From: Thermacetogenium sp. UBA4966
GTDB taxonomy: Bacteria; Bacillota; DSM-12270; Thermacetogeniales; Thermacetogeniaceae
Reading direction: 5' to 3'
DNA length: 64,000 nt
Assembly: GCA_002397275.1 (NCBI GenBank)
Contig: DHAA01000113.1
Location: 4,694-68,693 of the forward strand
Part shown: positions 14,900 to 52,134 of the stretch, piece after piece
Numbering within the stretch: the stretch's first letter is position 1
Layout of the letters: each line of letters starts with the position of its first letter
The notes under the pieces: generated by a model
Seen by the model: only the letters and a program-made list of their open reading frames with translations
Databases searched by the model: none
What the model was told of the DNA's origin: nothing
Program-made: the position numbers and the translations under genes

Positions 14900-15170
14900 T
14901 GGTTGGTAAAATAGAAGTCGGAGGCTGGAAGTCGGATGTCGGAAAGTGGAGGCCGGCTGGATTCCAGCGAAGCGACCATAATGGAGTTCCGGGTAACGAG
15001 CCGGTTCTGGGCTGCTGTGGAATTCACCCCCTGATCGTCTTTTCCAACTTCTAACTTCGGACTTCTCACATCCAGGCATAATAGGGAGCGAGCGGAATCC
15101 ACCGGGGTGACCCACCCCTGAATAGACACAAGACGTGGTTGCTAGTTAGTCGTTAGTGGTTGGTAGTTGG
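14900..15170 (+). repeat. Modular intergenic repeat, copy A (GT-rich, GAAGTCGGAGG and core IR modules)
   Basis: The core is bounded by CCGGCTGGATTCC (14953) and GGAATCCACCGG (15105). It contains GGATTCCAGCGAAGCGACCATAATGGAGTTCCGGGTAACG and CATAATAGGGAGCGAGCGGAATCC, and is flanked by GT-rich GTGGTTGG... blocks. Confidence 0.85.
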
Positions 15171-15256
15171 AGAAAGTAATTGGAAAGAGAATTTAGCAGC
15201 CGGCGGTCAGTGGTTGGGAGCATAGTACTGATTTTGAATGAGAGGAGATGGATTTG

Positions 15257-15637
15257 ATGAAAGAGGCGTTTAATTCCTCAAAGGCGCCGGGACCTATGGG
15301 CGCTTATTCCCCTGCGGTCAAGGCGGGCGCCGTGATCTTTGTATCGGGACAGGGGCCTGAAGATGCCGTGACGCATGCAGCTAAAGGGAATAATATTGAG
15401 GAGCAGACACGCTTTGCCCTCGATAACCTGCTGGCGCAGCTGGAGGCGGCGGGAGCGGAGAGGGATGATGTGGTTAAGGTCAATGTTTATTTGAAAGACC
15501 TTAATGATTTTGAGAGATTCAACCAGGTTTATGCCGGCTATTTTCCGGATCCGAAGCCGGCCCGGACCACGGTTGGCTGCGATTTGATCAATGGGATCAT
15601 GATTGAACTAGACGCCGTCGCTTTGCTGAGCAAATAA
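15257..15637 (+). CDS. RidA/YjgF-family reactive enamine/imine deaminase
   Basis: About 126 aa with the characteristic YSPAV..G..IFVSGQ and C-terminal PARTTV...L....IE blocks. Confidence 0.85.
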   Translation: MKEAFNSSKAPGPMGAYSPAVKAGAVIFVSGQGPEDAVTHAAKGNNIEEQTRFALDNLLAQLEAAGAERDDVVKVNVYLKDLNDFERFNQVYAGYFPDPKPARTTVGCDLINGIMIELDAVALLSK

Positions 15638-15662
15638 ATGCGGCAGATAGGGAGTGTGGAAG

Positions 15663-16760
15663 TTGGCGACTGAGATCAGGAAGTGTATCTTGAATATCGA
15701 CCCTTATGTGCCCGGGAAACCTATAGAGGATGTGCAGCGTGAACTGGGGATCGACGACGTGATCAAACTGGCGTCTAATGAGAATCCCCTAGGGCCTTCA
15801 CCGCTGGCTGTTCAGGCAGTGCAGGAGGCGGCCGCGAAGCTGAATCTTTACCCGGACAGCAACTGTTATTATTTAAAGCAAGAGTTATCCGCGCATCTGG
15901 GAGTCAGCCCGGACAATTTAATTATTGGGAATGGAATCGATGAACTGCTTACCATTTTGGGCGAAATCTATCTCAACCCCTGTGATGAGGTTGTTTTCGC
16001 CGACCCCTCGTTTCCTGCTTATGCAACGGTAACCCGTCTGATGGGCGCCAAACCCGTCGCCGTACCTGTGGACGGGCATTTTAGCCATGATCTAGAAGCC
16101 ATGGCTAAGGCGGTCACAGATCAAACCAAGCTGGTTTTTCTGTGCAACCCCAATAACCCTACGGGAAGCATGTTAACCAGAGAGCAGATCGATGCTTTTT
16201 TGGAGCAGGCGCCGCCAAAAGTGTTGGTCGTTCTGGATGAAGCGTATGCAGAGTACGCGGCGTCCAAGGATTACCCTGATGGAATTGATTATGTGCGGGA
16301 AGGGCGTAATGTGATTGTTTTCCGGACATTTTCCAAGGTCTATGGTCTGGCCGGGGCGCGGGTGGGATACGGCGCCGCGGATCCGAAAATCATTTCTCTC
16401 TTTAATCGTGTCCGTGAGCCCTTTAATGTAAACTGCCTGGCACAAATCGCCGCCTCTGCCGCTCTGCGAGACAGAGGGCATGTCGAGGCCACATTAAAGA
16501 ATAATGAGCGGGGGAAACTCTTTTATTATCAAAAATTTGAGGAATTGGGGCTCCCTTATGTTCCAACCGAGACCAATTTCATCTTTGTCGACCTGCAAGG
16601 GGACGGTAAAAAAATATTTAACGCTTTGCTGCGGAAGGGCGTGATCATCAGGCCCGGGGATATTTACGGCTATCCCCGCTGCGCACGGGTAACTATTGGG
16701 AAACCGGAAGAGAACGCCCGTTTTATTGACGAGTTGCGGAGGCTTTCCCTTGGCGCATAG
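15663..16760 (+). CDS. Histidinol-phosphate aminotransferase-like class II aminotransferase
   Basis: LASNENPLGPSP and the PLP-lysine context FRTFSKVYGLAGARVGY. The start is uncertain (TTG 15663 or GTG 15654). Confidence 0.8.
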   Translation: MATEIRKCILNIDPYVPGKPIEDVQRELGIDDVIKLASNENPLGPSPLAVQAVQEAAAKLNLYPDSNCYYLKQELSAHLGVSPDNLIIGNGIDELLTILGEIYLNPCDEVVFADPSFPAYATVTRLMGAKPVAVPVDGHFSHDLEAMAKAVTDQTKLVFLCNPNNPTGSMLTREQIDAFLEQAPPKVLVVLDEAYAEYAASKDYPDGIDYVREGRNVIVFRTFSKVYGLAGARVGYGAADPKIISLFNRVREPFNVNCLAQIAASAALRDRGHVEATLKNNERGKLFYYQKFEELGLPYVPTETNFIFVDLQGDGKKIFNALLRKGVIIRPGDIYGYPRCARVTIGKPEENARFIDELRRLSLGA

Positions 16761-16771
16761 AATATTTGCGC
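16753..16771. promoter_or_regulatory. Candidate enhancer (UAS) inverted repeat GCGCATA-N5-TTTGCGC
   Basis: 7-5-7 inverted repeat lying 41 nt upstream of the sigma-54 promoter at 16812. The same architecture occurs at 18438 and 22304. Confidence 0.55.
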
Positions 16772-16811
16772 TGCGGATGATTATTATCCTATATTAGCGC
16801 ATATTTTTGTC

Positions 16812-16827
16812 TGGTATGGTTTTTGCA
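16812..16827 (+). promoter_or_regulatory. Sigma-54 (-24/-12) promoter
   Basis: TGGTATGGTTTTTGCA, with GG and GC exactly 12 nt apart, matches TGGCAC-N5-TTGCA. It lies about 110 nt upstream of the MttB gene at 16939. Confidence 0.7.
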
Positions 16828-16938
16828 ATATAATAATTTACCAGGATCAATTAATACCGGTCGGGCGCCTTGAATCATGACAGCGTTCGGGCGGGAAGGC
16901 GGAGCGATTTCAACTACTATTTTTAGGAGGTATTCCTG

Positions 16939-18375
16939 ATGTATCTAGGTAAGCTTTACAACGAACCGGAGATTATGTTCAATACGTTGAACCAGGACCA
17001 GGTCAGGGAGATTCATTCGAAAAGCATTAGGATCCTAGAAGAACTGGGAATGGTCGTTCACCACGAAGAAGCCCGGCGGCTGTTAAAAGAGGCGGGGGCC
17101 TTTGTAGAGGGTGATAAGGTGTTCGTGCCCGCTTTTTTGGTGGAAAATGCGATCAGAACAGCGCCTTCAACCTTTACTTTATATGATCGCTGCGGGGATG
17201 CGGCAATGCATGTAGAACACCGCAATATTTACTATGGGACGGGATCCGATACGCCAAATCTCATTGATTTTGAGACCAGAGAAAGACGCAAGTGGACGAA
17301 AAAGGATGTGGAGGGCGGCATTGCCCTCTGCGACTATCTGGAAAATATCGATTTTGTGATGTCCATGGGCTTGATTTCTGATGTAGATCCGCTGCTGAAC
17401 ACTCGTGAGCAGTATGCGGTTATGATCAGAAAATCAAAGAAGCCGCAGATTGTCGTCTGCGACGACGTCAATGATTTAAATGATGTTATTGCCATGGCTG
17501 TAGCGGTGAGGGGCAGCCTGGAAAATTTGCAGCGAAAACCTCTGTTCGCCGTATATTGTGAGCCCAGCTCGCCTCTCGTCAACACCTTCAACGCCATCGA
17601 CAAGCTTTTGCTCTGCGCCGAGCAGAGAATTCCGGTTAATTATGCCGGCGGCGGATTGGCAGGGGGAACGACCCCGGTCACAGCCGCGGGAACGATTCTT
17701 TTGAATAACGCCGAGTGCTTGCTGGGACTGGTTATACACCAGCTTAAAAATCCGGGCGCTCCATTTTTGTATGGGTTCGGCAACGGGCCGCTGGATATGA
17801 AAACCATGCAGTCCATCTATTCTTCGCCGACCGCCATCCAGATTCAGGGCGGAATGTGTGAAATGGCCAGGTATTACCGCTTGCCCTCCTGGGGAGAGGC
17901 CGGGGACGGCGCCTCTAAAATGTGCGATGAGCAGAGCACCATGGAAGCATCCCACTTTATCTTGATGGCAGCCCTGCAGGGCTGCAATATAACCCATGAT
18001 GTCGGTTATCTGGATTGCGGCTTGAGTATTTCATTCGAGCATCTGGTGATCTGCGATCAGATCATCGGCAGAACAAAGGCTACGGTAAAAGAGCTGAAAA
18101 CAGATGAGGAATATTTGGGCTATGAGGCCATCGCCAGGGTCGGTCATGGCGGTAACTATATCTGCGACAAGCATACCTTTAATCATATGAAGGAAGAGTG
18201 GCGCGGGGATCTGTCTGATTTCAATTCTTATGAAACCTGGCACGGCAAAGGAAAACTGAGCATGAGAGAGCGCGCTCATGAAAAGGTGCTGCATATTCTC
18301 TCTAATTATCAGCCGGAACCGCTGGCCGCGGAAGTTGATGCCCAGATTGAAGAGATTTTAAACCAGGCCAGATAA
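16939..18375 (+). CDS. MttB-superfamily corrinoid-dependent methyltransferase (non-pyrrolysine)
   Basis: 478 aa uninterrupted ORF with MttB-family architecture and an AGGAGG RBS. It is a paralog of the ORFs at 1 and 18697. Confidence 0.88.
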   Translation: MYLGKLYNEPEIMFNTLNQDQVREIHSKSIRILEELGMVVHHEEARRLLKEAGAFVEGDKVFVPAFLVENAIRTAPSTFTLYDRCGDAAMHVEHRNIYYGTGSDTPNLIDFETRERRKWTKKDVEGGIALCDYLENIDFVMSMGLISDVDPLLNTREQYAVMIRKSKKPQIVVCDDVNDLNDVIAMAVAVRGSLENLQRKPLFAVYCEPSSPLVNTFNAIDKLLLCAEQRIPVNYAGGGLAGGTTPVTAAGTILLNNAECLLGLVIHQLKNPGAPFLYGFGNGPLDMKTMQSIYSSPTAIQIQGGMCEMARYYRLPSWGEAGDGASKMCDEQSTMEASHFILMAALQGCNITHDVGYLDCGLSISFEHLVICDQIIGRTKATVKELKTDEEYLGYEAIARVGHGGNYICDKHTFNHMKEEWRGDLSDFNSYETWHGKGKLSMRERAHEKVLHILSNYQPEPLAAEVDAQIEEILNQAR

Positions 18376-18390
18376 TAAGGGCTATGGCAT

Positions 18391-18428
18391 ACCGTTCCCA
18401 TCCTGATGGGGACGGTATATTTATTTCT
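18391..18428 (+). terminator. Rho-independent terminator
   Basis: ACCGTTCCCATC-CT-GATGGGGACGGT hairpin (one mismatch) followed by ATATTTATTTCT, 15 nt after the stop codon. Confidence 0.7.
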
Positions 18429-18437
18429 ACGTTCACA

Positions 18438-18456
18438 GCGCAAAATTTTTATGCGC
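18438..18456. promoter_or_regulatory. Candidate enhancer (UAS) inverted repeat GCGCAAA-N5-TATGCGC
   Basis: Same 7-5-7 motif as at 16753 and 22304. It lies about 140 nt upstream of the sigma-54 promoter at 18595. Confidence 0.5.
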
Positions 18457-18594
18457 GCATTATTATTTTCCGTGATCGCTCGTAGCAAGGGGGGAGAGCA
18501 TATTCCACTCCAATTCCTTTGAACATTACACAAAAGCGGAGACCGCCGTTATTAAATATGACCGCTATGCAGGGCAAGCGCCGCGGCGAGCCGC

Positions 18595-18610
18595 GGGCAT
18601 GTTTCTTGCA
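18595..18610 (+). promoter_or_regulatory. Sigma-54 (-24/-12) promoter
   Basis: GGGCATGTTTCTTGCA with the GG-N10-GC spacing correct, followed by ATA as in the other two sites. It lies about 85 nt upstream of the MttB gene at 18697. Confidence 0.65.
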
Positions 18611-18696
18611 ATACATAATTGACGGATAAAAGCTTCACATGGAGTGGAGGGCCTTGCATGGAGTGGGGGCAAATTACCGGGAAGGGGTTTTAGCTT

Positions 18697-20157: not shown

Positions 20158-20200
20158 TTGAGGATGGCGCTTGATAAATCATATCGTGGGGGGTTGTGGC

Positions 20201-26737: not shown

Positions 26738-27982
26738 ATGTATATAGAAAAGGTTCTGGCAGCGCCGGGTTTGACCGGTTTTTATTTCGACGATCAGCTG
26801 GCGATCAAGAAAGGGGCCGGAGAAAATGGCGCGGCCTACAGCGGCCGGCCGTTGACCCCCGGTTTTATAGAGGTGCGTCAGCGCGGGGAATCATTGTGTA
26901 TTATGTTTTTGCTTTCCGACGGACAGGTGGCTTATGGAGACTGCGCCGCTGTTCAGTACTCCGGAGCGGATGGCCGGGATCCCCTTTTCCTGGCGGCGGA
27001 TTTTATACCGCTGGTCGAGGGTTATCTGGCGGAGAGGCTGGAGGGGATGCAGATTTCTACATTTCGGGCGCCCGCGGAGGAGTTTGACGCTCTCCCGGGA
27101 CCCGATGGCCAAAGGATGCATACCGCTTTGCGCTATGGGCTGACCCAGGCTCTGCTCCATGCCGTCGCGATCAAAGAGAAGAAGCTGATGTGCGAGGTTC
27201 TGGCAGAGGAGTACAATACCGGATTAATTGCCGAGCCGGTCCCAATTTTTGCTCAGACCGGTGATGATCGTTACAGCAACGCCGACAAAGCAATTATCAA
27301 ACGGGCCGATGTGCTGCCGCACGGCCTGATCAATAATGTAGAGCTCAAGCTGGGAGGCAGCGGAGAGAAGCTGTACGACTATGTGTCCTGGCTGAGGAAG
27401 AGGGTGGCGGAACTGGGGGGCGAGGATTACCGTCCGGTTCTGCACATCGATGTTTACGGGACTCTAGGCCTGGCCTTTGAGAACAACCTGGAGGGGATAG
27501 CTGATTATTTGGCTCGCCTGGAGACCGCGGCCTCCCCCTTGCGGCTGCGCGTCGAGGGGCCGGTAGATATGGGGTCGAAGGAGCAGCAAATAGAAGCCCT
27601 GAGCAGGCTGAAGATACTCCTGGTAACAAAAGGGACAAAGGTGGAGATCGTGGCTGACGAGTGGTGCAACACGCTGGAGGATGTGCGGGATTTTGTGGAT
27701 GCCGGCGCAGGCCATATGGTGCAGATCAAGACCCCTGATTTGGGAGGAATCAACAACACCATAGACGCTATTCTCTATGCCAGGGCTCATGGAGCAGGCG
27801 CCTATCAGGGAGGGACCTGCAATGAAACAGACCGCTCGGCCCGTGTCTGTGTGCATTTAGCCCTGGCTGCCCGCCCTGATCAGATGCTGGCTAAACCGGG
27901 GATGGGTGTGGACGAGGGAATGATGATTGTGATGAATGAAATGCAGCGTGCCCTGCGCATCTTGAAGTATAGATCGGGGTAG
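26738..27982 (+). CDS. mal: Methylaspartate ammonia-lyase
   Basis: Colinear with clostridial beta-methylaspartase (PGLTGFYFDDQ.AIKKGAG, CAAVQYSGA.GRDPLF, HMVQIKTPDLGG, GGTCNET.RSA). ATG 26738 is preferred; the ORF is open from 26726. Confidence 0.92.
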   Translation: MYIEKVLAAPGLTGFYFDDQLAIKKGAGENGAAYSGRPLTPGFIEVRQRGESLCIMFLLSDGQVAYGDCAAVQYSGADGRDPLFLAADFIPLVEGYLAERLEGMQISTFRAPAEEFDALPGPDGQRMHTALRYGLTQALLHAVAIKEKKLMCEVLAEEYNTGLIAEPVPIFAQTGDDRYSNADKAIIKRADVLPHGLINNVELKLGGSGEKLYDYVSWLRKRVAELGGEDYRPVLHIDVYGTLGLAFENNLEGIADYLARLETAASPLRLRVEGPVDMGSKEQQIEALSRLKILLVTKGTKVEIVADEWCNTLEDVRDFVDAGAGHMVQIKTPDLGGINNTIDAILYARAHGAGAYQGGTCNETDRSARVCVHLALAARPDQMLAKPGMGVDEGMMIVMNEMQRALRILKYRSG

Positions 27983-28046
27983 ATCAGAGCAGTTCGGAGC
28001 AGATCAGAGCAGACAGATCAGATCTGAGCAGGGTGGCGCCCTCCTG

Positions 28047-28141
28047 AGCTGCCGGTTAATTTGGATGTCGGATGCCTGAAGTCGGAGGTCAGAGATTTGG
28101 AATCCGCCGACACGGGAGACATCCGATGAAAATAGCAGAAC
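28047..28141. repeat. Modular intergenic repeat, copy B (partial)
   Basis: Shares GCCGGTTAATTTGGATGTCGGA with copy D, GAAGTCGGAGGTCAGA with copy E, and GGAATCCGCCGACA..GAGACATCCGATGAAAATAGCAGAAC with the reverse complement of copies F and G. Confidence 0.8.
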
Positions 28142-30789: not shown

Positions 30790-30900
30790 TTTAGTGGTTG
30801 GTCGTTGGTGGTTAGTAGTTGGTAGAGCCATCCCGGTGATTTTGTAGGCCGGAGGCCGGATGTCTGAGGTCGGAAATTGGTGGCCGGGTGGATTCCAGTG
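30790..30900. repeat. Modular intergenic repeat, copy C (partial)
   Basis: TTTAGTGGTTGGTCGTTGGTGGTTAG starts directly after the stop codon. It is followed by a GGCCGGAGGCCGGATGTCTGAGGTCGGA module and only the left arm CCGGGTGGATTCCAGTG. Confidence 0.8.
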
Positions 30901-33760: not shown

Positions 33761-33895
33761 CCCTCTGGATTCCAGTGAAGCGACCATTATGGAGTTCCGG
33801 GTAACGGCATCAGGCGAAGCGAAGTTGCCGGTTAATTTGGATGTCGGAAACTTCTCACTTCTAGTCATAATAGGGAGCAAGCGGAATCCAGAGGG
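33761..33895 (+). repeat. Modular intergenic repeat, copy D (complete 135-bp core with perfect 13-bp terminal inverted repeats)
   Basis: CCCTCTGGATTCC ... GGAATCCAGAGGG. It lies between the 2Fe-2S and FAD subunit genes of the XDH-family enzyme. Confidence 0.88.
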
Positions 33896-33975
33896 CCTGA
33901 GTAGTTACAAATTTTCATCCATCTGATGGTGAAGCGAGCTTCATGAGCGTCTACTTGAGAAAGGAGGCCGACCGC

Positions 33976-34866
33976 ATGAGAGAAGCTGCAATGCTCACTC
34001 CCAACAATTTATCAGAACTGAGAGAGGCTTTGGGTCAGGCAACCCCCCCAAGCAAAATATTGGCCGGCGGCACCGACCTGGTGTTGGCCATCCATCAAGG
34101 CAGGTGCAAACCGGATCTGCTCATTGATCTTTCAGGGGTCGAGGAGCTGAAGATTATTAAATTAACAGAGGGCAGGATTCATATCGGCGCCATGGCTACT
34201 TTTACGCAGCTTATGGACAATCAGCTTATAAAAGGCAGTCTTCCCTGTCTGAGAGAGGCGGCCTCGCTCATTGGGTCGAATCAGATTCGCAGCGCCGGCA
34301 CCATTGGGGGGAATATCGGCAACGCCTCCCCGGCCGGAGATACCATCCCCGTTTTGTTGGCTTTTGATGCCGTTGTCAGGGTTTTAGACAGCTCCGGGCA
34401 AGCGGTGGAACAAAGCATCGATCAGGTCATTAGCGGGGCAGGGAGGACAAGCCTGCGCAGAGACCAAGTGATCACAGAGATCATCATCCCGCTCCTTGGC
34501 GAACATTATAGGAGCACTTTTGTGAAGATCGGTTCCAGAACCGCGGTGACCATAGCTAAGCTGAATATGGCCCTGGCGGTCAAGTACGACGAGACGGCGA
34601 AAAGCATATCCGATGTGCGGGTAGGGCTGGGAGCTATTGGAACCAAAGCATTCCGGGAGCGGCAGGTGGAGGAAATCTTAAACGGCAGGCGGGTTGATCA
34701 GTGTCTGGCCGATACCCTGGCCGAAGAGTTATCTGCGGCTGTGCAAAGGGCTATCCCCGGCCGCTACTCGCTTCCCTATAAGAGAGAGGCGGTCAAGGGG
34801 CTGGCCCAAAGCGCCTTTGCCAACTTATTCCCAAAGCTGTATGGCGGCGTTTCGTTTACCACATAG
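33976..34866 (+). CDS. FAD-binding (CoxM/XdhB-like) medium subunit of the XDH-family enzyme
   Basis: GGTDL and GTIGGNIGNASPAGD motifs. ATG 33976 is preferred (GGAGG 8 nt upstream); the ORF is open from 33943. Confidence 0.85.
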   Translation: MREAAMLTPNNLSELREALGQATPPSKILAGGTDLVLAIHQGRCKPDLLIDLSGVEELKIIKLTEGRIHIGAMATFTQLMDNQLIKGSLPCLREAASLIGSNQIRSAGTIGGNIGNASPAGDTIPVLLAFDAVVRVLDSSGQAVEQSIDQVISGAGRTSLRRDQVITEIIIPLLGEHYRSTFVKIGSRTAVTIAKLNMALAVKYDETAKSISDVRVGLGAIGTKAFRERQVEEILNGRRVDQCLADTLAEELSAAVQRAIPGRYSLPYKREAVKGLAQSAFANLFPKLYGGVSFTT

Positions 34867-34955
34867 TTGGTGGTTGGGAAAATAGAAGTCGGAGGCCAGA
34901 GGTCGGAGGTCAGAAATTTGAAGCCGGTCGGTTTGGGATGCCGGATGCCGGAATA
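34867..34955. repeat. Modular intergenic repeat, copy E (GT-rich plus GAAGTCGGAGG modules only)
   Basis: TTGGTGGTTGGGAAAATAGAAGTCGGAGGCCAGAGGTCGGAGGTCAGAAATTTGAAGCCGG, nearly the same as the left flank of copy A. Confidence 0.8.
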
Positions 34956-37411: not shown

Positions 37412-37435
37412 GGTGAGTTTTCGCCCCACCCTATC

Positions 37436-37612
37436 TACCCTGAAAGTAACGTTCTGCTATTTTCATCGGATGTCTACCATGTCGGTGGATTCCGCTTGCT
37501 CCCTATTATGACTATCTTCGCTGCGCCTGATGCCGTTACCCGGAACTCCATAATGGTCGCTTCACTGGAATCCAGCCGGACACTACCCCTGAAAGCAATG
37601 TTCTGCCGCGGC
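37436..37612 (-). repeat. Modular intergenic repeat, copy F (minimal 97-bp core, inverted orientation)
   Basis: The core at 37483..37579 runs from CGGTGGATTCCGCTTGCTCCCTATTATGAC to CATAATGGTCGCTTCACTGGAATCCAGCCGG. It is flanked on both sides by CTACC(C)CTGAAAG.AA.GTTCTGC. Confidence 0.88.
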
Positions 37613-37614: not shown

Positions 37615-39339
37615 TCATGGCCACTCCATACCCATTTCGTCGAGCTCTTTGTAGTTGAAATGAGCGAACAGGGGAGTCAAAGAGGCCATCTCCGCAAAGA
37701 TCTGCTCGGGATGCGGGTAATCCATCGGGTAACCCATCCTGGCGCTCAGGGCGGCGATGGTTTCCCAGTTGGCCTTGCCCGGAATCGGTTCGATCGCCTT
37801 GCGCACCCTCTGCAGGCGGCGCTTGTTATTGGTGAAGGTGCCGTCGGTTTCCGCAAAGCTGGCCGCGGGCAAAACCACATCCGCATATTCTGTGGTTTCT
37901 GTCGGGAAAAGGTCATGAAGCACAAGGAACTCCAGGTTGGAGAGCGCCGAGCGGATGTCCTCACTGTTAAGCTCCGAGAGCACGGGGTTTTCACCCATGA
38001 TGTACATCGCCTTGACGCTGCCCTGATTGGCCTGTTCAAACATCTCGGATACGGTCAGACCGGCTTCTCCGGGCAGGGAAGCCCCCCAGGCCTCCTTGAA
38101 TTTCGTGCGTATTTTTTTCTGTTCTACCCTCTGATAACCGGGCAGGGATCCGCTCAGAGCGCCCATGTCGCTTGCCCCCTGCAGGTTATTTTGGCAGCGA
38201 AGCGTGGCTATGCCCGTAAATTCGCCGACTGTTCCGCTGCAAAAGGCGTCCTCACGATACATGGCGCCATGGCAGGGGCTGGGGTAGTGGTCGATGTTGT
38301 TTGTGCCGATCACTGCCCGCACAAACTTCTGGAAAAGATAGATCTCTTCGTTGGTAAACCTGGTGGAACTTATAGCGGCAAAAGAATTTGGCCCGTATTG
38401 ATTCGTGATCTCTTGAAGGCGCGCAGCGGCAAAATCCAGGGCTTCATCCCAGGAGGCGGGGACAAGTTTGCCGTTTCGCCTGATGAGCGGTGTTGTCAGC
38501 CGCTTGTCGCTGTGGATGAAGTCACGGGTTGCAAAGCGGCCTCTGATGCACAGAGCGCGCCCATTGACTGCATTTTCAGGATTAGAGGTTACCCCTATGA
38601 CTTTGCCGTCCTTAACGCGCAGGTCAAAGGTGCATCCTGTGCCACAGAAGGTACAGGTGGTTTTTACCTTTTTTAAATTCCAGCGGCGGCCCTGGTTGAG
38701 CATTTGCTTCTCCGACAGGGCGCCGACCGGGCAGAAAGCCACGCAGTTGCCGCAGTAGATGCACTCTGATTCACTTAAAGGCGTATCGCCGAAAGGCGCC
38801 ACCCTGGTGTTGAAGCCGCGGTAGGAAAAATCGATGATGTTCTTTCCGGTGATCTCCGCACAGGCTCGGATACACCTGCCGCAGAGGATGCACTTGTTCA
38901 TGTCGCGGACGATAAAAGGGTTGTCCGCTTCTGTCTCGTACTGGTGTTTTTCACCCGTAAATGGACTCTTAATGACGCCGTAATCATAGCAGTATTTGGC
39001 CAGTACACATTCTCCCAGCTTTTCACAGGTGAGGCAATCCGTTGGATGGTTGGCAATCAGCAGTTCCAATACGGTTTTGCGTGCTTCGGTGACCACCGGT
39101 GTGTTGGTGCGCACCACCATGCCCTCTCTTGCTTCGGTGACGCAGGACGCGGGCAGATTGCGCATCCCTTCGATCTCCACTATACAAAGGCGACAGGCGC
39201 CTACCGAACTCAGATCCGGGTCATAGCAGAGCCTGGGGATATGAATCCCCATCGTTTGCGCCGCCTCTAAAACTGTGGTTCCTTGCGGAACCTGAACTTC
39301 ATTCCCGTCAATGATCAGCTTGACGAGTCCCACTTTCAT
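37615..39339 (-). pseudogene. fdhA: Remnant of NAD-linked formate dehydrogenase alpha subunit (internal deletion plus 3' truncation)
   Basis: The N-terminal 2Fe-2S and 4Fe-4S domains are intact. After GTNNIDH the catalytic Cys/Sec segment and much of the MopB domain are missing, and the sequence resumes at LRCQNNLQGASDMGAL. The ORF stops at ...MEWP, where full-length enzymes continue into the C-terminal molybdopterin dinucleotide-binding domain. The stop abuts repeat copy F. Confidence 0.7.
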
Positions 39340-41733: not shown

Positions 41734-41761
41734 CAATCCTCGCCGTTTTTCCTCTAAAACA

Positions 41762-42141
41762 TACCTTGGAAATAACGCTCTGCTATTTTCATCGGTGTTT
41801 ACTATGCCGCCGGATTCCGCTCGCTCCCTACTATTACTGGAAGTGAAGTTTGAAATTATAAGTTGGAATAGAAGTTTCCAACTTCTAATTTCCGGGCGGC
41901 TCTGCCGCTGTTCCTATTTCCGGCCTCCGACATCCTGCTTCCGACCTCCAAAATAGCCTGCAGCTTCGCTGTGCCTGATGCCGTTACCCGGAACTCCATA
42001 ATGGTCGCTTCGCTGGAATCCATCCGGTTTGACGCCACCTCCGAATAGACATCCATGCTGCTTGGCGGCGCCATTGCCAACGACCAACGACTAACCACTA
42101 ACGACTAACCATGTGGCACACGAAACATCCCCCCGCCACAT
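41762..42141 (-). repeat. Modular intergenic repeat, copy G (219-bp core with internal insertion, plus CA-rich module and conserved hairpin)
   Basis: The core lies at 41809..42027, the CA-rich CCAACGACCAACGACTAACCACTAACGACTAACC at 42077..42110, and the ATGTGGC..GCCACAT hairpin at 42111..42141. Confidence 0.88.
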
Positions 42142-43204: not shown

Positions 43205-43206
43205 GG

Positions 43207-43688: not shown

Positions 43689-43740
43689 TCTAACCACCAA
43701 CGACCAACGACTAACCACTAACCGCCATCTAACCGCCATC
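43689..43740. repeat. CA/GT-rich repeat module, copy H (between feoB and feoA)
   Basis: CTAACCACCAACGACCAACGACTAACCACTAACCGCCATCTAACCGCCATC is the reverse complement of the GT-rich module seen in copies A and C. Confidence 0.8.
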
Positions 43741-45199
43741 AAAAGGTTAGTCCCAGCAGCGCCAGCGCCTGGTTGAGTATATAGCCGCAGAAGAAGGCGA
43801 AGGGGAAGATGAAACAGGCGATAGCCAGCGCCGTTTTCCATCCTCTCTCTTTGACCATGATGGCGAACTGTGCTATACAGGGAACGAATATGGTCAGGGT
43901 TACCGCGGCCACTAACATCTGAACCCCTGTGAGAACCCCACTTTTTTGCAGATCATAGAGCCCCGCGGCTCCATAGTCACGGCGGAAGAAGCCGAAGAGA
44001 AAGATCTCTGCGGCTTTAGAGGGAAGCCCCAGCGCTCCCATCAGGGGCGTCGTCGCCTGGATAACGGCATCGAAAGCGCCGGTTATCTTTCCTGCCCAGA
44101 TGAGGACGCTGGCCAGGATGAAGAAGGGCACGATTTCAATAAAATACCACTGCATGCGGGAGAGGGTCTTTTCCAGTATGTTGGAGAGTTTGGGCATTCT
44201 CAAAGGGGGAAGTTCCATATAAAAGGAGGGCTTTTTCCCGGGCATCAGCTTGGCCGCCAGATAGCCCACCAAAAGGAAGAGCAGAATAATGAACCCTGAC
44301 CAAATCGCTAAGGCCAGGGGCTTGGCGGAGAGAAGGCCCAACACTACGCCCAGCTGTGCAGAGCAGGGGATGGCCAGAGCCAGGAGCAGGGTGGCGATTA
44401 CCCGCTCTCTGTTGGTTTCCAGGGTTCTGCTGACCAGGGTGGCCATCGTGTCGCACCCGAACCCGAGGGCCATGGGGATCACCGCTCTTCCGCTGAGGCC
44501 GATTTTTTTAAAGAGGCGGTCCACCAAAAGAGCAAGCCGCGGCAGATAGCCGGAGTCCTCGAGAAGTGAGAAAGCGAGAAAAAATGTGCCCACGATAGGC
44601 AGAATGATGGCTACCGCGTAGCGAAGGCCCAGGGTGACGACGCCATAATCGAAGGCGAGCAGGGTCTGCAGGGCAGGCCAGGGGATCAAGTTCCCGACGA
44701 CCTGATTGACCCAGGGGTTGATATATGCTTCAAACAGCTTCCCTTCGATAAGGTCTACCAGTGTCCCGGCGCCGAATTGCCCTACAAACTTGTACAAGCC
44801 GAAGTAGAGAACAAGCAGCAGGATGGGGATTCCGGTCAGAGGCTGTATTGTAAGGCGGTCGAGGACCGAGTGGAGACGCTTCTTTTTGTCGCTGTCCTTC
44901 ACAACTCCCGCAAGAATTTCTTTTGACTTTTGATGGGTCTGCAGGGTAATAACATAACGCAGGGGGTCCTTGTATTGAGAACGTGTATTTTGGATTACCG
45001 CAAAAATGCGGGGGAATTCACGCTCCCGCAGTTTAACCATTTTCATAATCTCTTCATCTTGCTGAAGCAAAAGCAGAGCGATCATGCGTTTAGAGAAGGT
45101 ATATCTGGCCTTCAGCAGTTTTTCAATGCTCTCCAGTGATTTTTCAATGGTTTCGTCATAGCGAAGGGCGAACCTTTCAGGCGACCCGCTTCCTGACAT
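43739..45199 (-). CDS. feoB: Ferrous iron transporter FeoB, helical plus membrane (gate/nucleoside-recognition) portion
   Basis: 486 aa polytopic protein colinear with residues after the G-domain of FeoB. It overlaps the G-domain ORF by 23 nt in another frame. Confidence 0.8.
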   Translation of the reverse strand: MSGSGSPERFALRYDETIEKSLESIEKLLKARYTFSKRMIALLLLQQDEEIMKMVKLREREFPRIFAVIQNTRSQYKDPLRYVITLQTHQKSKEILAGVVKDSDKKKRLHSVLDRLTIQPLTGIPILLLVLYFGLYKFVGQFGAGTLVDLIEGKLFEAYINPWVNQVVGNLIPWPALQTLLAFDYGVVTLGLRYAVAIILPIVGTFFLAFSLLEDSGYLPRLALLVDRLFKKIGLSGRAVIPMALGFGCDTMATLVSRTLETNRERVIATLLLALAIPCSAQLGVVLGLLSAKPLALAIWSGFIILLFLLVGYLAAKLMPGKKPSFYMELPPLRMPKLSNILEKTLSRMQWYFIEIVPFFILASVLIWAGKITGAFDAVIQATTPLMGALGLPSKAAEIFLFGFFRRDYGAAGLYDLQKSGVLTGVQMLVAAVTLTIFVPCIAQFAIMVKERGWKTALAIACFIFPFAFFCGYILNQALALLGLTF

Positions 45200-45755
45200 A
45201 CTGCGCCACCATCCTCTTTAGCTGCTCCATACCGCGGTTTAAGGCTGCTGCGGTTCCTGCCACAGGGATCCCCAAAGCCTGGGAGAGAGCATCCAGGTCG
45301 ATGCTGCGTCCGATTTTTTTCGCCTCGTCCATCATGTTGACCGCGAGTATGACAGGCAGGCCGGCCTCCAGCAGCTGCAGGGTGAGGGGGAGCATCCTTT
45401 CAATGTTTTTCGCATCCACCACATGCATAACCACATCCGGTTTTTCCTGCAGCAGGAGTGTTCTGGTTACCCGTTCCTCTTCGGTAATTGGAAACAGGGA
45501 ATACATGCCGGGAGTGTCGATTACCTCATACATTTGCCGATCAAGCTTGGCGGCGCCCCGAGAGACCTCGACCGTGGTTCCCGGGTAATTGGAAACGGTA
45601 ACATAGGTTCCGGTTATGAGATTGAAGATCACGCTTTTCCCTACGTTAGGTGTTCCCACTAAAACCAGCTTTGTTTTTCTGTTTCTAAATGCCGGTTGCG
45701 GCGGTTTGCTTTTATTGGCTGTATTGCGCCGGTCATCTTCCGTTTGTTTGTCCAT
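45177..45755 (-). CDS. feoB: FeoB N-terminal GTPase domain encoded as a separate ORF
   Basis: G1 GTPNVGKS, G3 DTPG and G4 NMMD motifs. Confidence 0.8.
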   Translation of the reverse strand: MDKQTEDDRRNTANKSKPPQPAFRNRKTKLVLVGTPNVGKSVIFNLITGTYVTVSNYPGTTVEVSRGAAKLDRQMYEVIDTPGMYSLFPITEEERVTRTLLLQEKPDVVMHVVDAKNIERMLPLTLQLLEAGLPVILAVNMMDEAKKIGRSIDLDALSQALGIPVAGTAAALNRGMEQLKRMVAQYVRKRVA

Positions 45756-46131: not shown

Positions 46132-46251
46132 AATATTAAAGCAAACGTTAGAATGTAGGACTACAGTAAATCCCGGCGAGCTGAAGGGAGGGTCTATTTT
46201 AGCAACCGGGTAACCGGAGGAGTTCGACCGAACCCTTAAATTTTCAGGGAG

Positions 46252-47628: not shown

Positions 47629-47735
47629 CAAGCGTCGCTGGGAAAAACAGTTATAGACAGCCCGGGTATTTTTGTATAAGCTTGTATGAGTGTAATGCCC
47701 GGGCTATTCTGTGCATCTGGATAAGGGGTGATTCT

Positions 47736-48104: not shown

Positions 48105-48165
48105 TGGCCGTTATTTCCACCCACCTGCACCCTCAAAAAAATAGTCTAATTTTGTCGATCAATGC

Positions 48166-48194
48166 TTGACATTCGTTTTCATGAGAAATATAAT
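48166..48194 (+). promoter_or_regulatory. Consensus SigA promoter with no downstream ORF
   Basis: TTGACA (48166-48171), exactly 17 nt, then TATAAT (48189-48194). Confidence 0.7.
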
Positions 48195-48200
48195 ATAGAT

Positions 48201-48418
48201 GAATTAGAAATAAATTTCACAAGGATACTTACTACCGATATTTTTATTAAAAGATATCCAGCAAATGCACTCTAGACGCGCTAATAAATGATCTAAGGGA
48301 CGAGGTTCGCAGCAATATTCCTACTATAATCTTCAGAACTTTGGATGGGGGACCGGCCCCTTCCATGAGTTTAGCGGGATGACTCCGAAAAGGTGATTCA
48401 TCCCTTTTTGTTTTTCTG
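48201..48418 (+). ncRNA. Candidate small non-coding RNA (promoter-to-terminator unit, family not recognised)
   Basis: About 215 nt between the perfect promoter and an intrinsic terminator. The longest ORF is under 10 codons. There is an internal hairpin TGGATGGGG-N8-CCCCTTCCA. Confidence 0.45.
48376..48418 (+). terminator. Rho-independent terminator
   Basis: GGGATGA...TCATCCC stem (extended by CTCC/GGTG pairing) followed by TTTTTGTTTTTCTG. Confidence 0.7.
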
Positions 48419-48428
48419 TTCTGCGGTA

Positions 48429-48533
48429 TCAGGTTGGGGGCTTGCGCAGAGGGATAATAATGTGCGTATATATCACATAGGCCAGGGTTCCGCCCAGAAG
48501 GATTAGGAGTAGAATTGCCGCTAATTTTTCCAT
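48429..48533 (-). CDS. 34-codon hydrophobic small ORF (MEKLAAILLLILLGGTLAYVIYTHIIIPLRKPPT)
   Basis: Not in the ORF track because it is under 60 aa. It has an ATG with a weak AAGGGAA RBS, one predicted TM helix and a basic/proline tail. It lies 71 nt downstream of the ABC permease and converges on the sRNA candidate. Confidence 0.3.
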   Translation of the reverse strand: MEKLAAILLLILLGGTLAYVIYTHIIIPLRKPPT

Positions 48534-48604
48534 AAAGATTTTCCCTTCTTTCTCTTCTTTCCTTAATGTAACCGCGGGCAGGGGGTAATTATGCGAGTCG
48601 TTGC

Positions 48605-51226
48605 CTACAAATTCTCTGCCCGCAAAGCCTCAATGATGTTGTCGTTTTTCAGCTTGGCGCCGGCATGCAGCATGGTGATGAAGACGATGCCGAACACCCC
48701 GATGACGCAGGCCAGGATCTCTTTCCCGGGCAGGAAGAAAGCGAACTCAAACACCTCGCTGAAGGAGCTGTGCAGCAGCATGCTGATCAGGATGCCCACA
48801 GGCAGCCCGTAGAGAAGGGCTTTCAGGCCGTAGAAGACGCTCTCGTAGTTGATCATTTTGTTAAAGCCCCGCGGGGTCAGCCCCACCGATTGCAGCATGG
48901 CGAATTCACGGCGGCGCAGGGCGATATTGGTGCTGATCGTGTTGAATATATTGGTGACGCCGATCAGGGTGATCAGGGTGACGAAGCCGTAGAGAAAGAT
49001 GGAAATCATTTTTTTTGCGCGTTCCATATTGTTCTGTTCGGCTTGCACGTCATAAAGGTGCAGGGAGCAGTGGCCTGAATAATCTTCAAAAATAGTGCGG
49101 ATCCGCTCCGCCAGATCCCCCGGGGCTGCGCTGTTATCCGCGCAGATAAAAAGCTCCGCTTCATTCCCTGAACGCATAGTCTCATCTGTCAGCAGCGAAC
49201 TGAGCACAGGGAACGCTGCTTCGGAGACGACCATGTTGACCTCTGCCGGCTCGGTGTAGGCGACCCCCAGGGGAAGCGTGTCGGTGATGGCGCCGATCTC
49301 CATGGAAAAGGGGACGGGAGCGGGAGGAGCAGGAACTCCGCTCGCTGTCGTCAGCAGCAGTTTCTCGCCTGTTTTCGCCTGCAGCGGCTCGTACCCGGTA
49401 TGTTTGCCGGCCTCCCGCAGGACGTTTTTGTTGATGAGGATCCCTCTTAACTTTTTGGTATCCTGAAATGCCGCGGCGTCAATTCCATTTTCCGCGGCGT
49501 AAGCCTTGAATTCCGCTTCCCCCAGCGCGGTGATTCGAACAGTACAGCGGTATTGGTTTTTTTTATTCACGGGAAATAGCTTTTGCTCATCAAGATGCTT
49601 TTCTTGAAGATAAGAGCCGAATCGGGAGCGCGTCAGCCAGGATTCGGCAAAAACCATCCTGGCGGTCGCATATCTCTCCACACCGTCAAGAGCGGCAATC
49701 CGTTTATAAAAGGCTGCTTGCTCCTCCGGGGAGGCATTATTGAGAGTCACCGATAAATCGAAGGCCCCCTCCTGGAAATACATATTGGTACCGGTAAACC
49801 CATAGTTGAGGAATGAGGAGAAAGAGATGAAGAGGACGATGCTGATGAAGAGGGAGAGCACGGTCGTCCGGTAGCGGCGGCGGTTGCGCTTCAGGTTTTT
49901 TAAGGCCAGCTCTCCCTCAAACCCCCATAAAAGGCGGCTCAGCCTGGAGGTTTTCATGGCTTTCCCCTTGATTTTGATATCCGAGCTCAGCCTGATCGCC
50001 TCGATGGGGGAGGCGGAGGAGGCCCTTTTGGCCGGGATGTAGGCAGAGATAAAGATGAGCAGGGCCATAAAAACGATCGAGCCCAGGATTACACCGGGAG
50101 AGACGATCAGCCGCCGCAGTGCAACATCTTCGATGCCGATCATGCCGCTCGCCAGGCGGTTGACCACGGAGAAGGTTACGGCGATGCCGCCGATACCGGA
50201 GAGGATACCGGCGGGTATGCCGGCCAAAGCCAGGATAGCGCCTTCGAAAAATACGGACCTCCGGATCTGCCCGGGCGTGGCGCCGACGCCGGCCAGCATG
50301 CCGAACTGCTTTTTGCGCTCGCTTACCGATATGGCGAAGGCATTGTAGATGACGATCACCGAGCCGACCGCGATCAGAGCGATGACGATGGCGGTTATAG
50401 AATAGAGCATCGCTTTCACACTATCATATTTAGAAATGCCCATCCACTTTAGAAGTTCGTCGTTGTAGTCGTAATGCTCGATCCCGGCATTTTTGGCCAT
50501 CTGCGGAACCTTGTCGTAAATCTGGCGCGGGTTTTTCCCCTGGATGGACACAGTGACCGGTTTGGCGGCAGGGCTGCTCTGATCCAGATAGGCGAGCACC
50601 GTAAAACCCGGAATGCCGTAGATATTTTCATGAGCGGGCTTGGCCATTAATCCTGTAACAGTATAAGTTTTTTTTGCGGCAGTGGCTTTAAATTGCTCTG
50701 TTTCTTCAAGTGAACTGTCAAAGGGCAGCTGCTGCCCCTCATTGATTCTCTCGCCCAAAGCGAAGGTAATGGCGTCGCCGATCTGATAAGCCTCTCCGCC
50801 ATGTTTCAAGATCTCTTTGGAGAGTAGTATTTCCCCGGCTTTTTCCGGGAAACGCCCAGCGGTTAATTGGACCGGCATCTGCCGGAAAGCTGTGTCATCG
50901 TATTCTCTGACAAAGAAATAGGGCTTAGTTTTAGATGTGGACCGCTCAAAACGGGCGTACCCCAGATCTCCGCTGAGCATGCTTTTTTTAGTGTATGTGT
51001 TGTCGGTGATGTACTTGATCTGCTCAGGGTTGACATTGAAAAAGGCGGCATGGAAATTTCCCTGGGTCTTGATCGCTTCCTGCACAAAAACATCCTGGAA
51101 ACTGGCGGCCAGAGTGAACGTGCCGCAGATCATCGCCCCGGAGAGGATGATGCCGATGATGGTGACGATGGTGCGCTTGCGGTTCAGCTTCAGGCTGCGC
51201 CAGGTAAGGGTATTAATGATATTCAC
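48605..51226 (-). CDS. FtsX-family ABC transporter permease (MacB/BceB-like, duplicated FtsX domains)
   Basis: 873 aa with two 4-TM FtsX modules separated by and flanking large extracytoplasmic regions. It overlaps the ATPase gene stop. Confidence 0.8.
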   Translation of the reverse strand: MNIINTLTWRSLKLNRKRTIVTIIGIILSGAMICGTFTLAASFQDVFVQEAIKTQGNFHAAFFNVNPEQIKYITDNTYTKKSMLSGDLGYARFERSTSKTKPYFFVREYDDTAFRQMPVQLTAGRFPEKAGEILLSKEILKHGGEAYQIGDAITFALGERINEGQQLPFDSSLEETEQFKATAAKKTYTVTGLMAKPAHENIYGIPGFTVLAYLDQSSPAAKPVTVSIQGKNPRQIYDKVPQMAKNAGIEHYDYNDELLKWMGISKYDSVKAMLYSITAIVIALIAVGSVIVIYNAFAISVSERKKQFGMLAGVGATPGQIRRSVFFEGAILALAGIPAGILSGIGGIAVTFSVVNRLASGMIGIEDVALRRLIVSPGVILGSIVFMALLIFISAYIPAKRASSASPIEAIRLSSDIKIKGKAMKTSRLSRLLWGFEGELALKNLKRNRRRYRTTVLSLFISIVLFISFSSFLNYGFTGTNMYFQEGAFDLSVTLNNASPEEQAAFYKRIAALDGVERYATARMVFAESWLTRSRFGSYLQEKHLDEQKLFPVNKKNQYRCTVRITALGEAEFKAYAAENGIDAAAFQDTKKLRGILINKNVLREAGKHTGYEPLQAKTGEKLLLTTASGVPAPPAPVPFSMEIGAITDTLPLGVAYTEPAEVNMVVSEAAFPVLSSLLTDETMRSGNEAELFICADNSAAPGDLAERIRTIFEDYSGHCSLHLYDVQAEQNNMERAKKMISIFLYGFVTLITLIGVTNIFNTISTNIALRRREFAMLQSVGLTPRGFNKMINYESVFYGLKALLYGLPVGILISMLLHSSFSEVFEFAFFLPGKEILACVIGVFGIVFITMLHAGAKLKNDNIIEALRAENL

Positions 51227-51906
51227 GGCCTGATCACCTCGTCTTTAACGATGCGCCCGTCGGCCAGGGTGATCAGGCGATCCGCCTGCAGGGCTATTTT
51301 GTGATCGTGGGTGACGATGAGCAGGGTTTGCTGATAGCGCTTATTGGATAGCTTGAGCAGGTCGACGATCTCTTCCGAATTTTTGCTGTCCAGGTTTCCT
51401 GTCGGTTCGTCCGCCAGAACCAGGGCCGGGCGGTTGATCAGGGCGCGGCCGATGGACACTCTCTGCTGTTCTCCGCCGGAGAGTTCATTGGGCAGATGGC
51501 CGGCCCTTTCCGTCAGGTTGAGAGTTGCCAGAAGCTCGCTTAAGAATTCCGGGTCTGCCTTTCTTTCATCAAGCAGCAGAGGCAGTGTGATATTTTCCTC
51601 TACATTTAAGATAGGGAGCAGGTTATAAAACTGATAAATGAGGCCGACCTGCCTTCTTCTGAAGATGGCCAGCCTGGTTTTGTCCAGCTGATAGATATCG
51701 GTGTCTTCGATAAACACCTTGCCCGCGCTGGGCCGGTCGACCCCGCCCAGCATATGCAGCAGAGTGGATTTGCCGGAGCCAGAGGCCCCGACAATGGCCG
51801 CGAACTCGCCTTTTTTTACGCTGAAGGAGACGCCGTCGAGGGCTTTCACCTGCGCTGCGCCGCTTCCGTATATTTTGGACAGATTCTCAACCCGCAGTAT
51901 TTCCAT
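51223..51906 (-). CDS. ABC transporter ATP-binding protein (MacB/LolD/BceA-like)
   Basis: Walker [10 protein letters not shown], signature LSGGEQQRV, Walker [16 protein letters not shown] 51906 has an AAGGAG RBS; the ORF-track start 51966 is too long. Confidence 0.88.
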
Positions 51907-52045
51907 AAACTCAAGCTCCTTTACTATGGTACTTACCAGATACTTACCTAGATTGTATCTGTCCAAGATGACTATCCGGTGACAGTTTTGGTGACAATTA
52001 TGTCATATTAAAACAAGGTAACTACTATCCAGCTATATCCTAAAG

Positions 52046-52134
52046 CCGGCAGGTTCCAGCGAAGCGACCCATATGGAGTCCCGGCATAAATACCCTTGAT
52101 TTAATGTGGCAAACGAAACGTCCCTATGCCACAT
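52046..52134. repeat. Degenerate partial repeat, copy I, plus conserved hairpin
   Basis: CCGGCAGGTTCCAGCGAAGCGACCCATATGGAGTCCCGGC is a diverged left arm. The hairpin ATGTGGCAAACGAAACGTCCCTATGCCACAT at 52104..52134 matches the one at 42111. Confidence 0.7.

Follow-up and report, generated by a model that had tools for sequence, protein, structure and literature searches.

A family of modular, hairpin-bearing intergenic repeats in an uncultured relative of Syntrophaceticus and Thermacetogenium

What occupies the long spacers between the gene blocks of a catabolic gene island in an uncultured anaerobe related to Syntrophaceticus and Thermacetogenium? The stretch that raises this question, referred to below as the window, comprises 64,000 nucleotides of contig DHAA01000113.1 (Thermacetogenium sp. 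UBA4966, assembly GCA_002397275.1) with a G+C content of 53.0%, and a first-pass annotation had reported in it nine copies or fragments of a modular intergenic repeat. These repeats form a previously undescribed family of non-coding mosaic elements, which is ordinary in kind and resembles the known repetitive extragenic palindromes and bacterial interspersed mosaic elements (REP/BIME), BOX elements, enterobacterial repetitive intergenic consensus (ERIC) sequences or MITEs (transposable elements of miniature size with inverted repeats). The repeats are probably mobile, and we find it fairly likely that they represent selfish, non-autonomous DNA, spreading or recently spread, which is moved by a transposase of the Y1/HUH type.

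Modules, anatomy and distribution of the repeats

Shared sequence far above chance was found at all nine sites. Four occurrences of the 21-nt left-arm motif GGATTCCAGYGAAGCGACCAT were counted in the window (versus 0.00 expected from shuffled sequences), and a repeat search together with self-BLAST of the regions connects all nine sites through common modules, with E-values down to 1e-27. Of these sites, which lie on both strands as had been reported, four (copies A, D, F and G) hold full cores, one (I) holds a partial core, and the other four (B, C, E and H) are module fragments (Table 1). The core lengths given earlier were reproduced by our measurements (~97 nt in F, 135 in D, ~153 in A and ~216-221 in G), and every recurring module listed was found again, including GGAATCC.CCGACA..GAGACATCCGATGAAAATAGCAGAAC at 28099 (+), 37451 (-) and 41777 (-), and GCCGGTTAATTTGGATGTCGGA at 28050 and 33826. 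The block described as GT-rich does recur, but, like the GAAGTCGGAGG block, it actually consists of tandem arrays of 7-nt units (GTTGGTA / GTCGGAG), as detected with Tandem Repeats Finder (TRF). These heptamer arrays are rich in GGA/GGAGG and UAG motifs and contain stop codons in all six frames. The repeats had also been said to occupy most gene-block junctions, with a high density at 28-44 kb. This holds for the 28-44 kb region, which is unusually dense, as seven of its eight spacers longer than 60 nt carry family modules, but not elsewhere in the window (one of seven such spacers at 5-27 kb, one of about four at 44-64 kb). The genes flanking the copies are ordinary metabolic ones (hut, glutamate mutase, methylaspartate ammonia-lyase, AtuA, xanthine dehydrogenase L/S/M, fumarase, formate dehydrogenase alpha subunit, UbiA and FeoAB), and no relics of tRNA or tmRNA were found in the window.

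The anatomy of the element was derived from an alignment of all copies, about ten of them near-complete; F, the Syntrophaceticus schinkii copy (locus L001) and L026 were taken as complete, together with L021, whose right arm is deleted. In a complete copy, three units follow each other in tandem on one strand: two small hairpins, with a long imperfect one (100-250 nt) between them. The first unit reads ...(A/G)TAG, then ACGCTCATGAAGCTCGCTTCACCATCAGATG, a 23-nt hairpin named m3L (GAAAATAGCAGAACATTGCTTTC) and AGGGGTAG. The second comprises TGTCCGG-CTGGATTCC, the left arm, an apical module, the right arm, GGAATCCA-CCGACA and TGGTAG, its two complementary ends forming the foot of the long hairpin. 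The third consists of ACATCC-GATG, another 23-nt hairpin, m3R (GAAAATAGCAGAACGTTACTTTC), which stands in direct orientation to m3L, and AGGGTAG, followed by unique flank. Since m3L and m3R show the identical contrast in every copy (TGGATG/ATTGC/GGGGTAG versus CCGATG/GTTAC/GGGTAG), they are inherited parts of the element, and we could rule out that these long direct repeats are a target-site duplication or an att core. No target-site duplication was found at the readable boundaries of D, F, L001, L021 and L026 either. In copies with m3 units, the unit junctions read GTAG in 13 of 21 cases and ATAG in four; on the right, similarity between copies ends directly past GGTAG in four of five copies, and (A/G)TAG precedes the left end in three of four.

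For the tip of the long hairpin, we distinguished at least three alternative types of apical module, and F lacks one altogether, which bears out the earlier proposal that extra modules are inserted at one internal point. The S-type module is a full palindrome found in S. schinkii, in L024 and in the loci behind the predicted proteins P0135/6 (see below), and partly inverted in A; the G-type module of ~100 nt is present in G, L021, L022, L026 and five copies derived from open reading frames (ORFs), and the short D-type module in D and P0127-9. Terminal inverted repeats (GGATTCC/GGAATCC plus CCGG extensions, 7-13 bp) close every full core. Their reported divergence between copies with preserved complementarity applies to a single copy, D (CCCTCT/AGAGGG), as A, F, G and copies outside the window have one outer stem in common, CCGG(C/A)T...ACCG. 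Pairing between the left arm (GCGAAGCGACCATTATGGAG) and the right arm (reverse complement, GCTCGCTCCCTATTATG) is only partial, and the conserved internal loops are asymmetric. The core can also be flipped relative to the left unit, as seen in D with the neighbouring unit at 33911-33953 and in L022 (1479-1563), and an alternative left context, (TTRGTSG)n - GAAAATAG - (GARGTCG)n, is found in A, C, E, L024 and L021 (position 13532), where it mostly starts in, or directly past, the upstream stop codon.

An exact-pattern scan of 185,579 GTDB species genomes detected the core in only two, S. schinkii Sp3 and Thermacetogenium sp. UBA5472, with one match each, and a scan of JGI metagenomes yielded only the S. 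schinkii-type copy again; such scans need near-exact matches, so that a diverged parent element could escape them. Both copies are ~92% identical to F; the closest fumarase homologues outside the strain have at most 81% protein identity. On the S. schinkii-type contig, the element has a G+C content of 51% versus 37-40% in its surroundings, the published S. schinkii genome having 46.6% (PMC4642661). The ~92% identity and the contrast in G+C content together suggest that the element spread recently or was transferred horizontally, or that it is under strong constraint.

Relatives with the same gene order were found to lack the family. Profiles of both arms (nhmmer) gave no copies in L010-L016, which represent the metagenome-assembled genome (MAG) GCA_012839645.1 (L010-L012; fumarase 79% identical), a Thermacetogenium sp. 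MAG (L013-L015; 77%) and a JGI contig (L016, 1-18062; 80%). In GCA_012839645.1, the genes for methylaspartate ammonia-lyase and AtuA overlap by 4 nt at the place taken in the window by a 215-nt spacer that contains fragment B. Contig L016 has kept the gene order of the window (AtuA ... xanthine dehydrogenase L/S/M, EamA, fumarase), and its spacers hold ten copies of an unrelated 30-nt REP-type palindrome (ATGCACCGGGGACGGTTCCTGGCGCAT), near which a gene for a 260-aa Y1_Tnp protein is located (12115-12897), resembling the REP-associated tyrosine transposases (RAYT). The same junctions have thus received different repeat families independently in different lineages. Presence and absence between lineages are thus clear, and the family is lineage-specific.

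Within the host, the repeats are dispersed. Positions 5248-25637 of the window are 100% identical to part of contig Ga0134850_000200 of JGI metagenome 3300038365, and several digester assemblies from ENA, NCBI and Logan contain identical sequence. The four ORF-marked loci that we examined lie on other contigs of the same metagenome, amid housekeeping genes (neighbours trx/grdA, argC/radical-SAM, moeA/MFS and typA; contexts including the arg operon, ATP synthase and grd genes). A census of 143 kb of host sequence with nhmmer counted eight left arms that are full and three clear partial ones, apart from a marginal stub in C, as well as six full right arms and one clear partial one. About 20 loci are known, certainly an undercount, with 11 or 12 in the 143 kb sampled and eight seen only via miscalled ORFs. 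This distribution bears on the idea that the repeats are not mobile but are scars or templates of local recombination, gene conversion and slippage in a rearrangement-prone island. Such an origin would fit the enrichment at 28-44 kb as compared to 5-27 kb, the position of copy F at a truncated gene and a gene-order break, the tandem heptamer arrays, which are typical of slippage, and the inversion of apical segments between copies (A versus the S. schinkii form). However, local processes cannot account for copies on at least four other contigs with unrelated housekeeping neighbours and in two genera of different base composition. The possibility of a mere local duplication, raised with the first-pass annotation, is refuted by these findings, and we consider the origin from local recombination largely refuted and very improbable.

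The repeats had been described as lacking a conserved ORF. We found no conserved long ORF, and core peptides were retrieved exclusively from ORFs of at most 107 aa among 5.8 billion proteins searched. Yet, two stop-free frames cross the left arm, LDSSEATIMEFRVTASG on the element strand and PDAVTRNSIMVASLES on the opposite strand, and gene callers annotate them as hypothetical proteins of 32-107 aa. Profiles of the two frames retrieved 10 and 4 such proteins (P0123-P0136, in JGI, ENA and NCBI annotations, one being labelled tetrahydrodipicolinate N-succinyltransferase by its source), of which two correspond to window copies A and G (P0123 runs through G) and twelve mark further loci; this route recovered only two of the four full window copies. 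Seven of nine substitutions in left-arm positions 1-49 (for example window 14959-15007 and 33767-33815) fall on one codon phase (p = 0.008, uncorrected), which is codon position three in each of the two stop-free frames (DSSEATIMEFRVTASG and PDAVTRNSIMVASLES). This excess may be due to chance; it is missing in positions 50-64, and as there are also indels in UBA5472 and in copy I and no longer homologue, we rejected a real small protein.

Mobility and its alternatives

As the repeats are dispersed, lineage-specific, shared between genera, found in both orientations and accompanied by many decayed fragments, we favour the view that they are selfish, non-autonomous repeats. Their copies would be moved in trans by an enzyme encoded elsewhere, most likely a Y1/HUH single-strand transposase of the RAYT or IS200/IS605 type. 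Such an enzyme would recognise the tagged hairpins on one DNA strand and leave no target duplication. After insertion, deletions and the replacement or inversion of the tip of the palindrome would lead to decay of the copies, and slippage would expand the flanking 7-nt arrays. The decay into one-armed fragments is directly visible in the copies. We prefer a Y1/HUH enzyme because target duplications are lacking, the subterminal hairpins are directly oriented, GTAG tags are present and similarity ends exactly after GGTAG, and further because L016, a relative with the gene order of the window, has a Y1_Tnp gene with its own REPs.

Alternatively, the element could be a classical MITE, i.e., an internally deleted insertion sequence (IS) moved by a DDE transposase via the terminal inverted repeats CCGG.TGGATTCC / GGAATCCA.CCGG. 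The inverted repeat that closes every full core would suit such an origin, as would the non-coding length of 100-330 nt, the two orientations and the intergenic sites, and the codon-phase excess in the left arm could be a relic of the parent's coding end. But conservation runs past the inverted repeats into asymmetric, directly repeated end units, no copy with readable boundaries has a target-site duplication, and no parent IS was found, the pattern scans of species genomes and JGI metagenomes having returned only short copies and the core-peptide searches only short ORFs. Because of the missing duplication and parent, we consider a DDE-type MITE quite unlikely.

Several observations weigh against a selfish repeat moved by a Y1/HUH enzyme. 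In accordance with the earlier description of the family as transposase-less, no transposase gene was detected in the window or in ~80 kb more from the same metagenome (143 kb of host sequence in total). No empty site at strain level came to light, every contig that shares the fumarase protein being 100% identical to the window, so that mobility is deduced from the distribution of copies rather than observed. About half of the copies have heptamer-array flanks without GTAG tags (A, C, E, L024), and the central hairpin of 100-250 nt is much longer than the 20-40 nt of REPs (core length is 97-220 nt for the window copies and ~240 nt for that of S. schinkii; only the 23-nt m3 hairpins fall in the REP size range). 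Single-stranded DNA folds are not unusually stable (L026, z -1.8; F, z +0.15). RNA folds, on the other hand, stand out against shuffled controls (D, z -3.3, with -53.8 kcal/mol; F, z -2.9; S. schinkii copy, z -4.4), the element-sense RNA folds better than the antisense by 5-21 kcal/mol in six of seven copies, and 13 copies are sense to their flanking genes versus four antisense (p = 0.049, in a partly biased sample). These last three features fit a role at the RNA level at least as well. The weak lean in orientation and the better fold of the sense strand are also the only hints at the roles in rearrangement, transcript punctuation or RNA stability suggested in the first-pass annotation.

According to this second alternative, the repeats would primarily be cis-acting RNA elements, whose transcribed hairpin and heptamer arrays act as mRNA stabilisers, processing sites or protein-binding platforms and thereby maintain the repeats. 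RNA-level functions have been proposed for many REP, ERIC and BOX copies. Besides folding and orientation, the many copies that start at the upstream stop codon or at most 10 nt away from it, the abundant GGA/GGAGG and UAG motifs of the heptamer arrays and the 92% conservation of the core between genera speak for such a function. Covariation, however, does not support it: for seven basal stems with 23 pairs, RNAalifold gave a covariation term of +0.33 and one compensatory pair, and the single changes amounted to nine broken versus eight wobble instances. The pairing is thus conserved because the sequence is conserved, with no independent sign of selection on structure, and the outer stem of copy D, where several positions are compensated, is the sole such case. 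Of the two signals anticipated in the first-pass annotation, a conserved structure and insertion polymorphism, only the latter is seen, in the form of presence/absence between lineages. Moreover, four or five copies are antisense to their neighbours (including G and L022), many fragments (B, C, E, I, L021b) are one-armed and unable to form the hairpin, close relatives manage the same operons without the element, and no terminator-like T run was found past the hairpins. As the primary explanation, an RNA element therefore seems rather unlikely to us. The RNA-level role and mobility are not mutually exclusive, and effects on transcripts, for example through stable RNA hairpins within operons, are plausible.

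A composite of both would be a novel HUH/Y1-mobilised type in Clostridia, i.e., a giant, flippable, GTAG-tagged hairpin flanked on both sides by subterminal hairpins in direct orientation, which passes horizontally between Syntrophaceticus and Thermacetogenium-type genera, with 7-nt arrays that are enzyme footprints or platforms for RNA-binding proteins. We regard this as speculative and improbable; if true, it would join a mobility mechanism with a transcript-level function, a combination undescribed for REP or MITE families.

Individual sites and neighbouring genes

Table 1. Coordinates of the repeat copies, modules and Rfam matches. Positions refer to the window unless a locus label is given.
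Feature	Position	Strand	Description
Copy A, left flank	14895-14952	+	7-nt tandem arrays TTAGTGG/TTGGTAA, then GAAGTCG/GAGGCYG units; TRF periods 7 and 14 at 14914-14956; array begins within the TAA stop of the AcnX-swivel gene
Copy A, full core	14953-15106	+	Left arm, apical segment (partial match to inverted S-type inner arm), right arm
Copy A, right flank	15107-15170	+	Module GGGGTGACCCACCCCTGAATAGACA common to G, then GTTGGTA heptamer array (TRF 15138-15170)
Fragment B	28047-28141	+	D-type apical module, heptamers, GGAATCC, right small-hairpin unit m3R; without left arm; m3R unit ends after GCAGAAC
Fragment C	30790-30898	+	Heptamer arrays, then GGCCGGGTGGATTCCAGTG (first ~12 nt of left arm), then unrelated sequence
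Copy D, full core	33761-33895	+	Short D-type apical module; outer stem CCCTCT/AGAGGG, not CCGGCT/ACCGG
Inverted partial left-end unit (…CGCTCATGAAGCTCGCTTCACCATCAGATGGATGAAAAT)	33911-33953	-	Adjoins copy D; matches L022 1479-1563; compared with L001 and L026 left ends
Fragment E	34864-34952	+	Heptamer arrays TTGGTGG, GTCGGAG, GGATGCC; degenerate core start
Copy F, minimal complete element	37435-37606	-	Core 37483-37580, 97 nt, no apical insert; partial m3L + GGGGTAG, core, TGGTAG, m3R + GGGTAG
Copy G, full core + m3R	41761-42027	-	Core 41807-42027; long G-type apical module
Copy G, outer flank	42028-42110	-	Module common to A right flank + heptamer array (AACGACT on + strand; TRF 42079-42109)
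Fragment H	43690-43727	-	Heptamer array only (TRF 43690-43723), between feoB and feoA, sense to both
Copy I	52046-52090	+	Degenerate left arm only, ~87-90% identity over 31 nt, with indel; nhmmer E = 5e-6
Molybdenum/tungsten cofactor riboswitch and SECIS matches (Rfam)	L017 6850-6971; L024 3026-3144; L021 16481-16518		L017 match just past the window's high end

The truncated gene that one copy had been noted to abut encodes a formate-dehydrogenase alpha-type protein of 574 aa (37615-39339, -), which has no C-terminal Molydop_binding domain; copy F starts 5 nt past its stop codon. This domain is present in a paralogue on L024, which is divided into 355 + 536 aa at what is likely a selenocysteine codon. 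FeoB is encoded by two ORFs with a 23-nt overlap (43739-45199 and 45177-45755, -), one for the membrane part (486 aa) and one for the N-terminal GTPase domain (192 aa). The gene may be split by nature, or else be a pseudogene or carry a frameshift; all identical public contigs show the same split. Two adjacent paralogous genes at 54713-58765 and 58773-63161 (-) encode proteins of 1350 and 1462 aa with Shr-like_HID/Glug matches and share ~74% DNA identity; one of them holds a 219-nt tandem repeat with 2.9 copies (59430-60063), and both are unrelated to the repeat family.

Other small repeats were observed near the copies. Just ahead of fragment B lies a tandem array of AGATC / AGATCAGAGC (27981-28031, ~5 copies of a 10-mer), which begins within the TAG stop of the methylaspartate ammonia-lyase gene and whose unit was not seen at the other sites. 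A second small repeat, the hairpin ATGTGGC-(A/G)NACGAAAC(G/A)TCCCYNN-GCCACAT, is found in the window at 42111-42141 and 52104-52132 (two occurrences versus 0.07 expected) and in L002 at 3096-3136; it adjoins G, I and the UBA5472 copy, its orientation being independent of theirs. In its loop it has the motif GAAAC(G/A)TCCC, similar to the loop of the REP-type palindromes that are abundant in L016 and accompany the Y1_Tnp gene there. In L016, nearly all spacers are enlarged to 150-480 nt by these palindromes and other local repeats, including those between xanthine dehydrogenase L/S and between fumarase alpha/beta, gene pairs that overlap in the window.

Comparison with known repeat systems

The earlier statement that the sequence does not belong to a recognised family is sustained by our searches, which revealed no known IS, intron or non-coding RNA. 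Rfam gave nothing at gathering thresholds in the window, and nothing relevant at E <= 5-10 in the 27.9-44 kb region or the S. schinkii copy; as a positive control, it recognised two molybdenum/tungsten cofactor riboswitches and one selenocysteine insertion sequence (SECIS) element in related host loci (Table 1). The family had no match in plasmids and phages (blastn) or in viral contigs (pattern scan), 15 viral matches to a 17-nt m3 word being attributed to chance, since they lie inside coding regions and the flanking motif is absent. Neither did the searchable literature contain a paper with the family motifs (the matches were primers), and no such repeats are described in the S. schinkii genome paper (PMC4642661). 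The strings CGAAAC and GAUGAAA raised the possibility of a ribozyme, hammerhead or other, which was rejected, because the CUGAUGA core varies between copies and Rfam remained silent. HutP-type UAG-N4-UAG arrays near the hut genes were dismissed as well, since a HutP-like ORF is lacking, UGG stands in many of the units and none of the arrays lies upstream of hut genes. Integron attC sites have conserved R''/R' (GTTRRRY) ends between promoterless cassettes and go along with intI, and the repeats of CRISPR arrays are identical and regularly spaced. Here, we found no integrase, the neighbouring genes encode subunits from ordinary operons (xanthine dehydrogenase L/S/M, fumarase, feoAB), orientations are mixed and the spacing is irregular; attC sites and CRISPR arrays were rejected on gene context and spacing.

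The family explains most of the otherwise unexplained long spacers in the catabolic gene island of an uncultured digester bacterium that has these repeats in common with syntrophic acetate oxidisers, as well as several miscalled 'hypothetical proteins' in public metagenome annotations, and it provides a sequence marker for the lineage. It does not open a long-standing question.

The likeness to REP/BIME, ERIC or MITE-type elements noted at first holds, in that we are dealing with a non-coding, hairpin-forming intergenic mosaic. BOX elements of Streptococcus pneumoniae (boxA-boxB(n)-boxC) are similarly modular, with conserved ends that pair with each other and a variable middle at one internal point; they, too, are intergenic, form a stable predicted hairpin, have no known transposase and occur in Firmicutes. 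Yet, their sequence and host are unrelated, and their middle consists of a variable number of one module instead of alternative modules. The extra small-hairpin end units and the heptamer arrays are further differences from BOX. ERIC sequences of enterobacteria, also called intergenic repeat units (IRU), are imperfect palindromes of ~127 bp with longer variants through insertions at fixed internal sites, a transcribed intergenic location and a debated mobility, but they belong to another phylum, are unrelated in sequence and have neither GTAG-separated end units nor heptamer arrays.

The palindrome-associated transposable elements (PATEs) derived from IS200/IS605 appear to share with the family asymmetric ends with subterminal hairpins in the same orientation, outermost ends without a terminal inverted repeat, the lack of a target duplication, and a short conserved tetranucleotide at the right terminus (here GGTAG in four of five copies, with a similar (A/G)TAG 5' of the left end in three of four). 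They differ in that the cargo of our element is a long palindrome and in that 143 kb of host sequence revealed neither tnpA nor tnpB as a partner. With four to five copies to judge from, the layout appears compatible with an IS200/IS605-type architecture.

Like REP, BIME and the inverted REP doublets known as REPINs, the family consists of intergenic non-coding palindromes in mosaics with other short motifs. REPs bear an unpaired GTAG (or CGTC) at one end of the palindrome. In our copies with m3 units, GTAG stands beside the hairpin foot at 13 of 21 unit junctions, which may be compared to the GTAG tag of REP super-families, whose tagged palindromes are RAYT substrates (PMC3733652, PMC3333891). 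Copies in both orientations, often directly downstream of genes and without target duplication, are a further likeness, and L016 provides a relative with the same gene order that carries typical REPs beside a Y1_Tnp gene. Besides hairpin size, the family differs from REPs in its unrelated sequence, in its tagged units, which are direct and do not alternate, in its ~20 loci known so far (certainly an undercount) versus hundreds per genome, and in that no RAYT is linked to it, none being present in 143 kb of host. Its arms are not mirror copies of one REP, whereas a REPIN is the same REP inverted around a short spacer. A GTAG-separated mosaic in Clostridia, with ~92% identity between genera of 47% and 53% G+C, would be a useful case for studying the movement of such repeats and a possible action of Y1 enzymes on far longer hairpins; the well-characterised REP/BIME-like mosaics come mostly from Proteobacteria.

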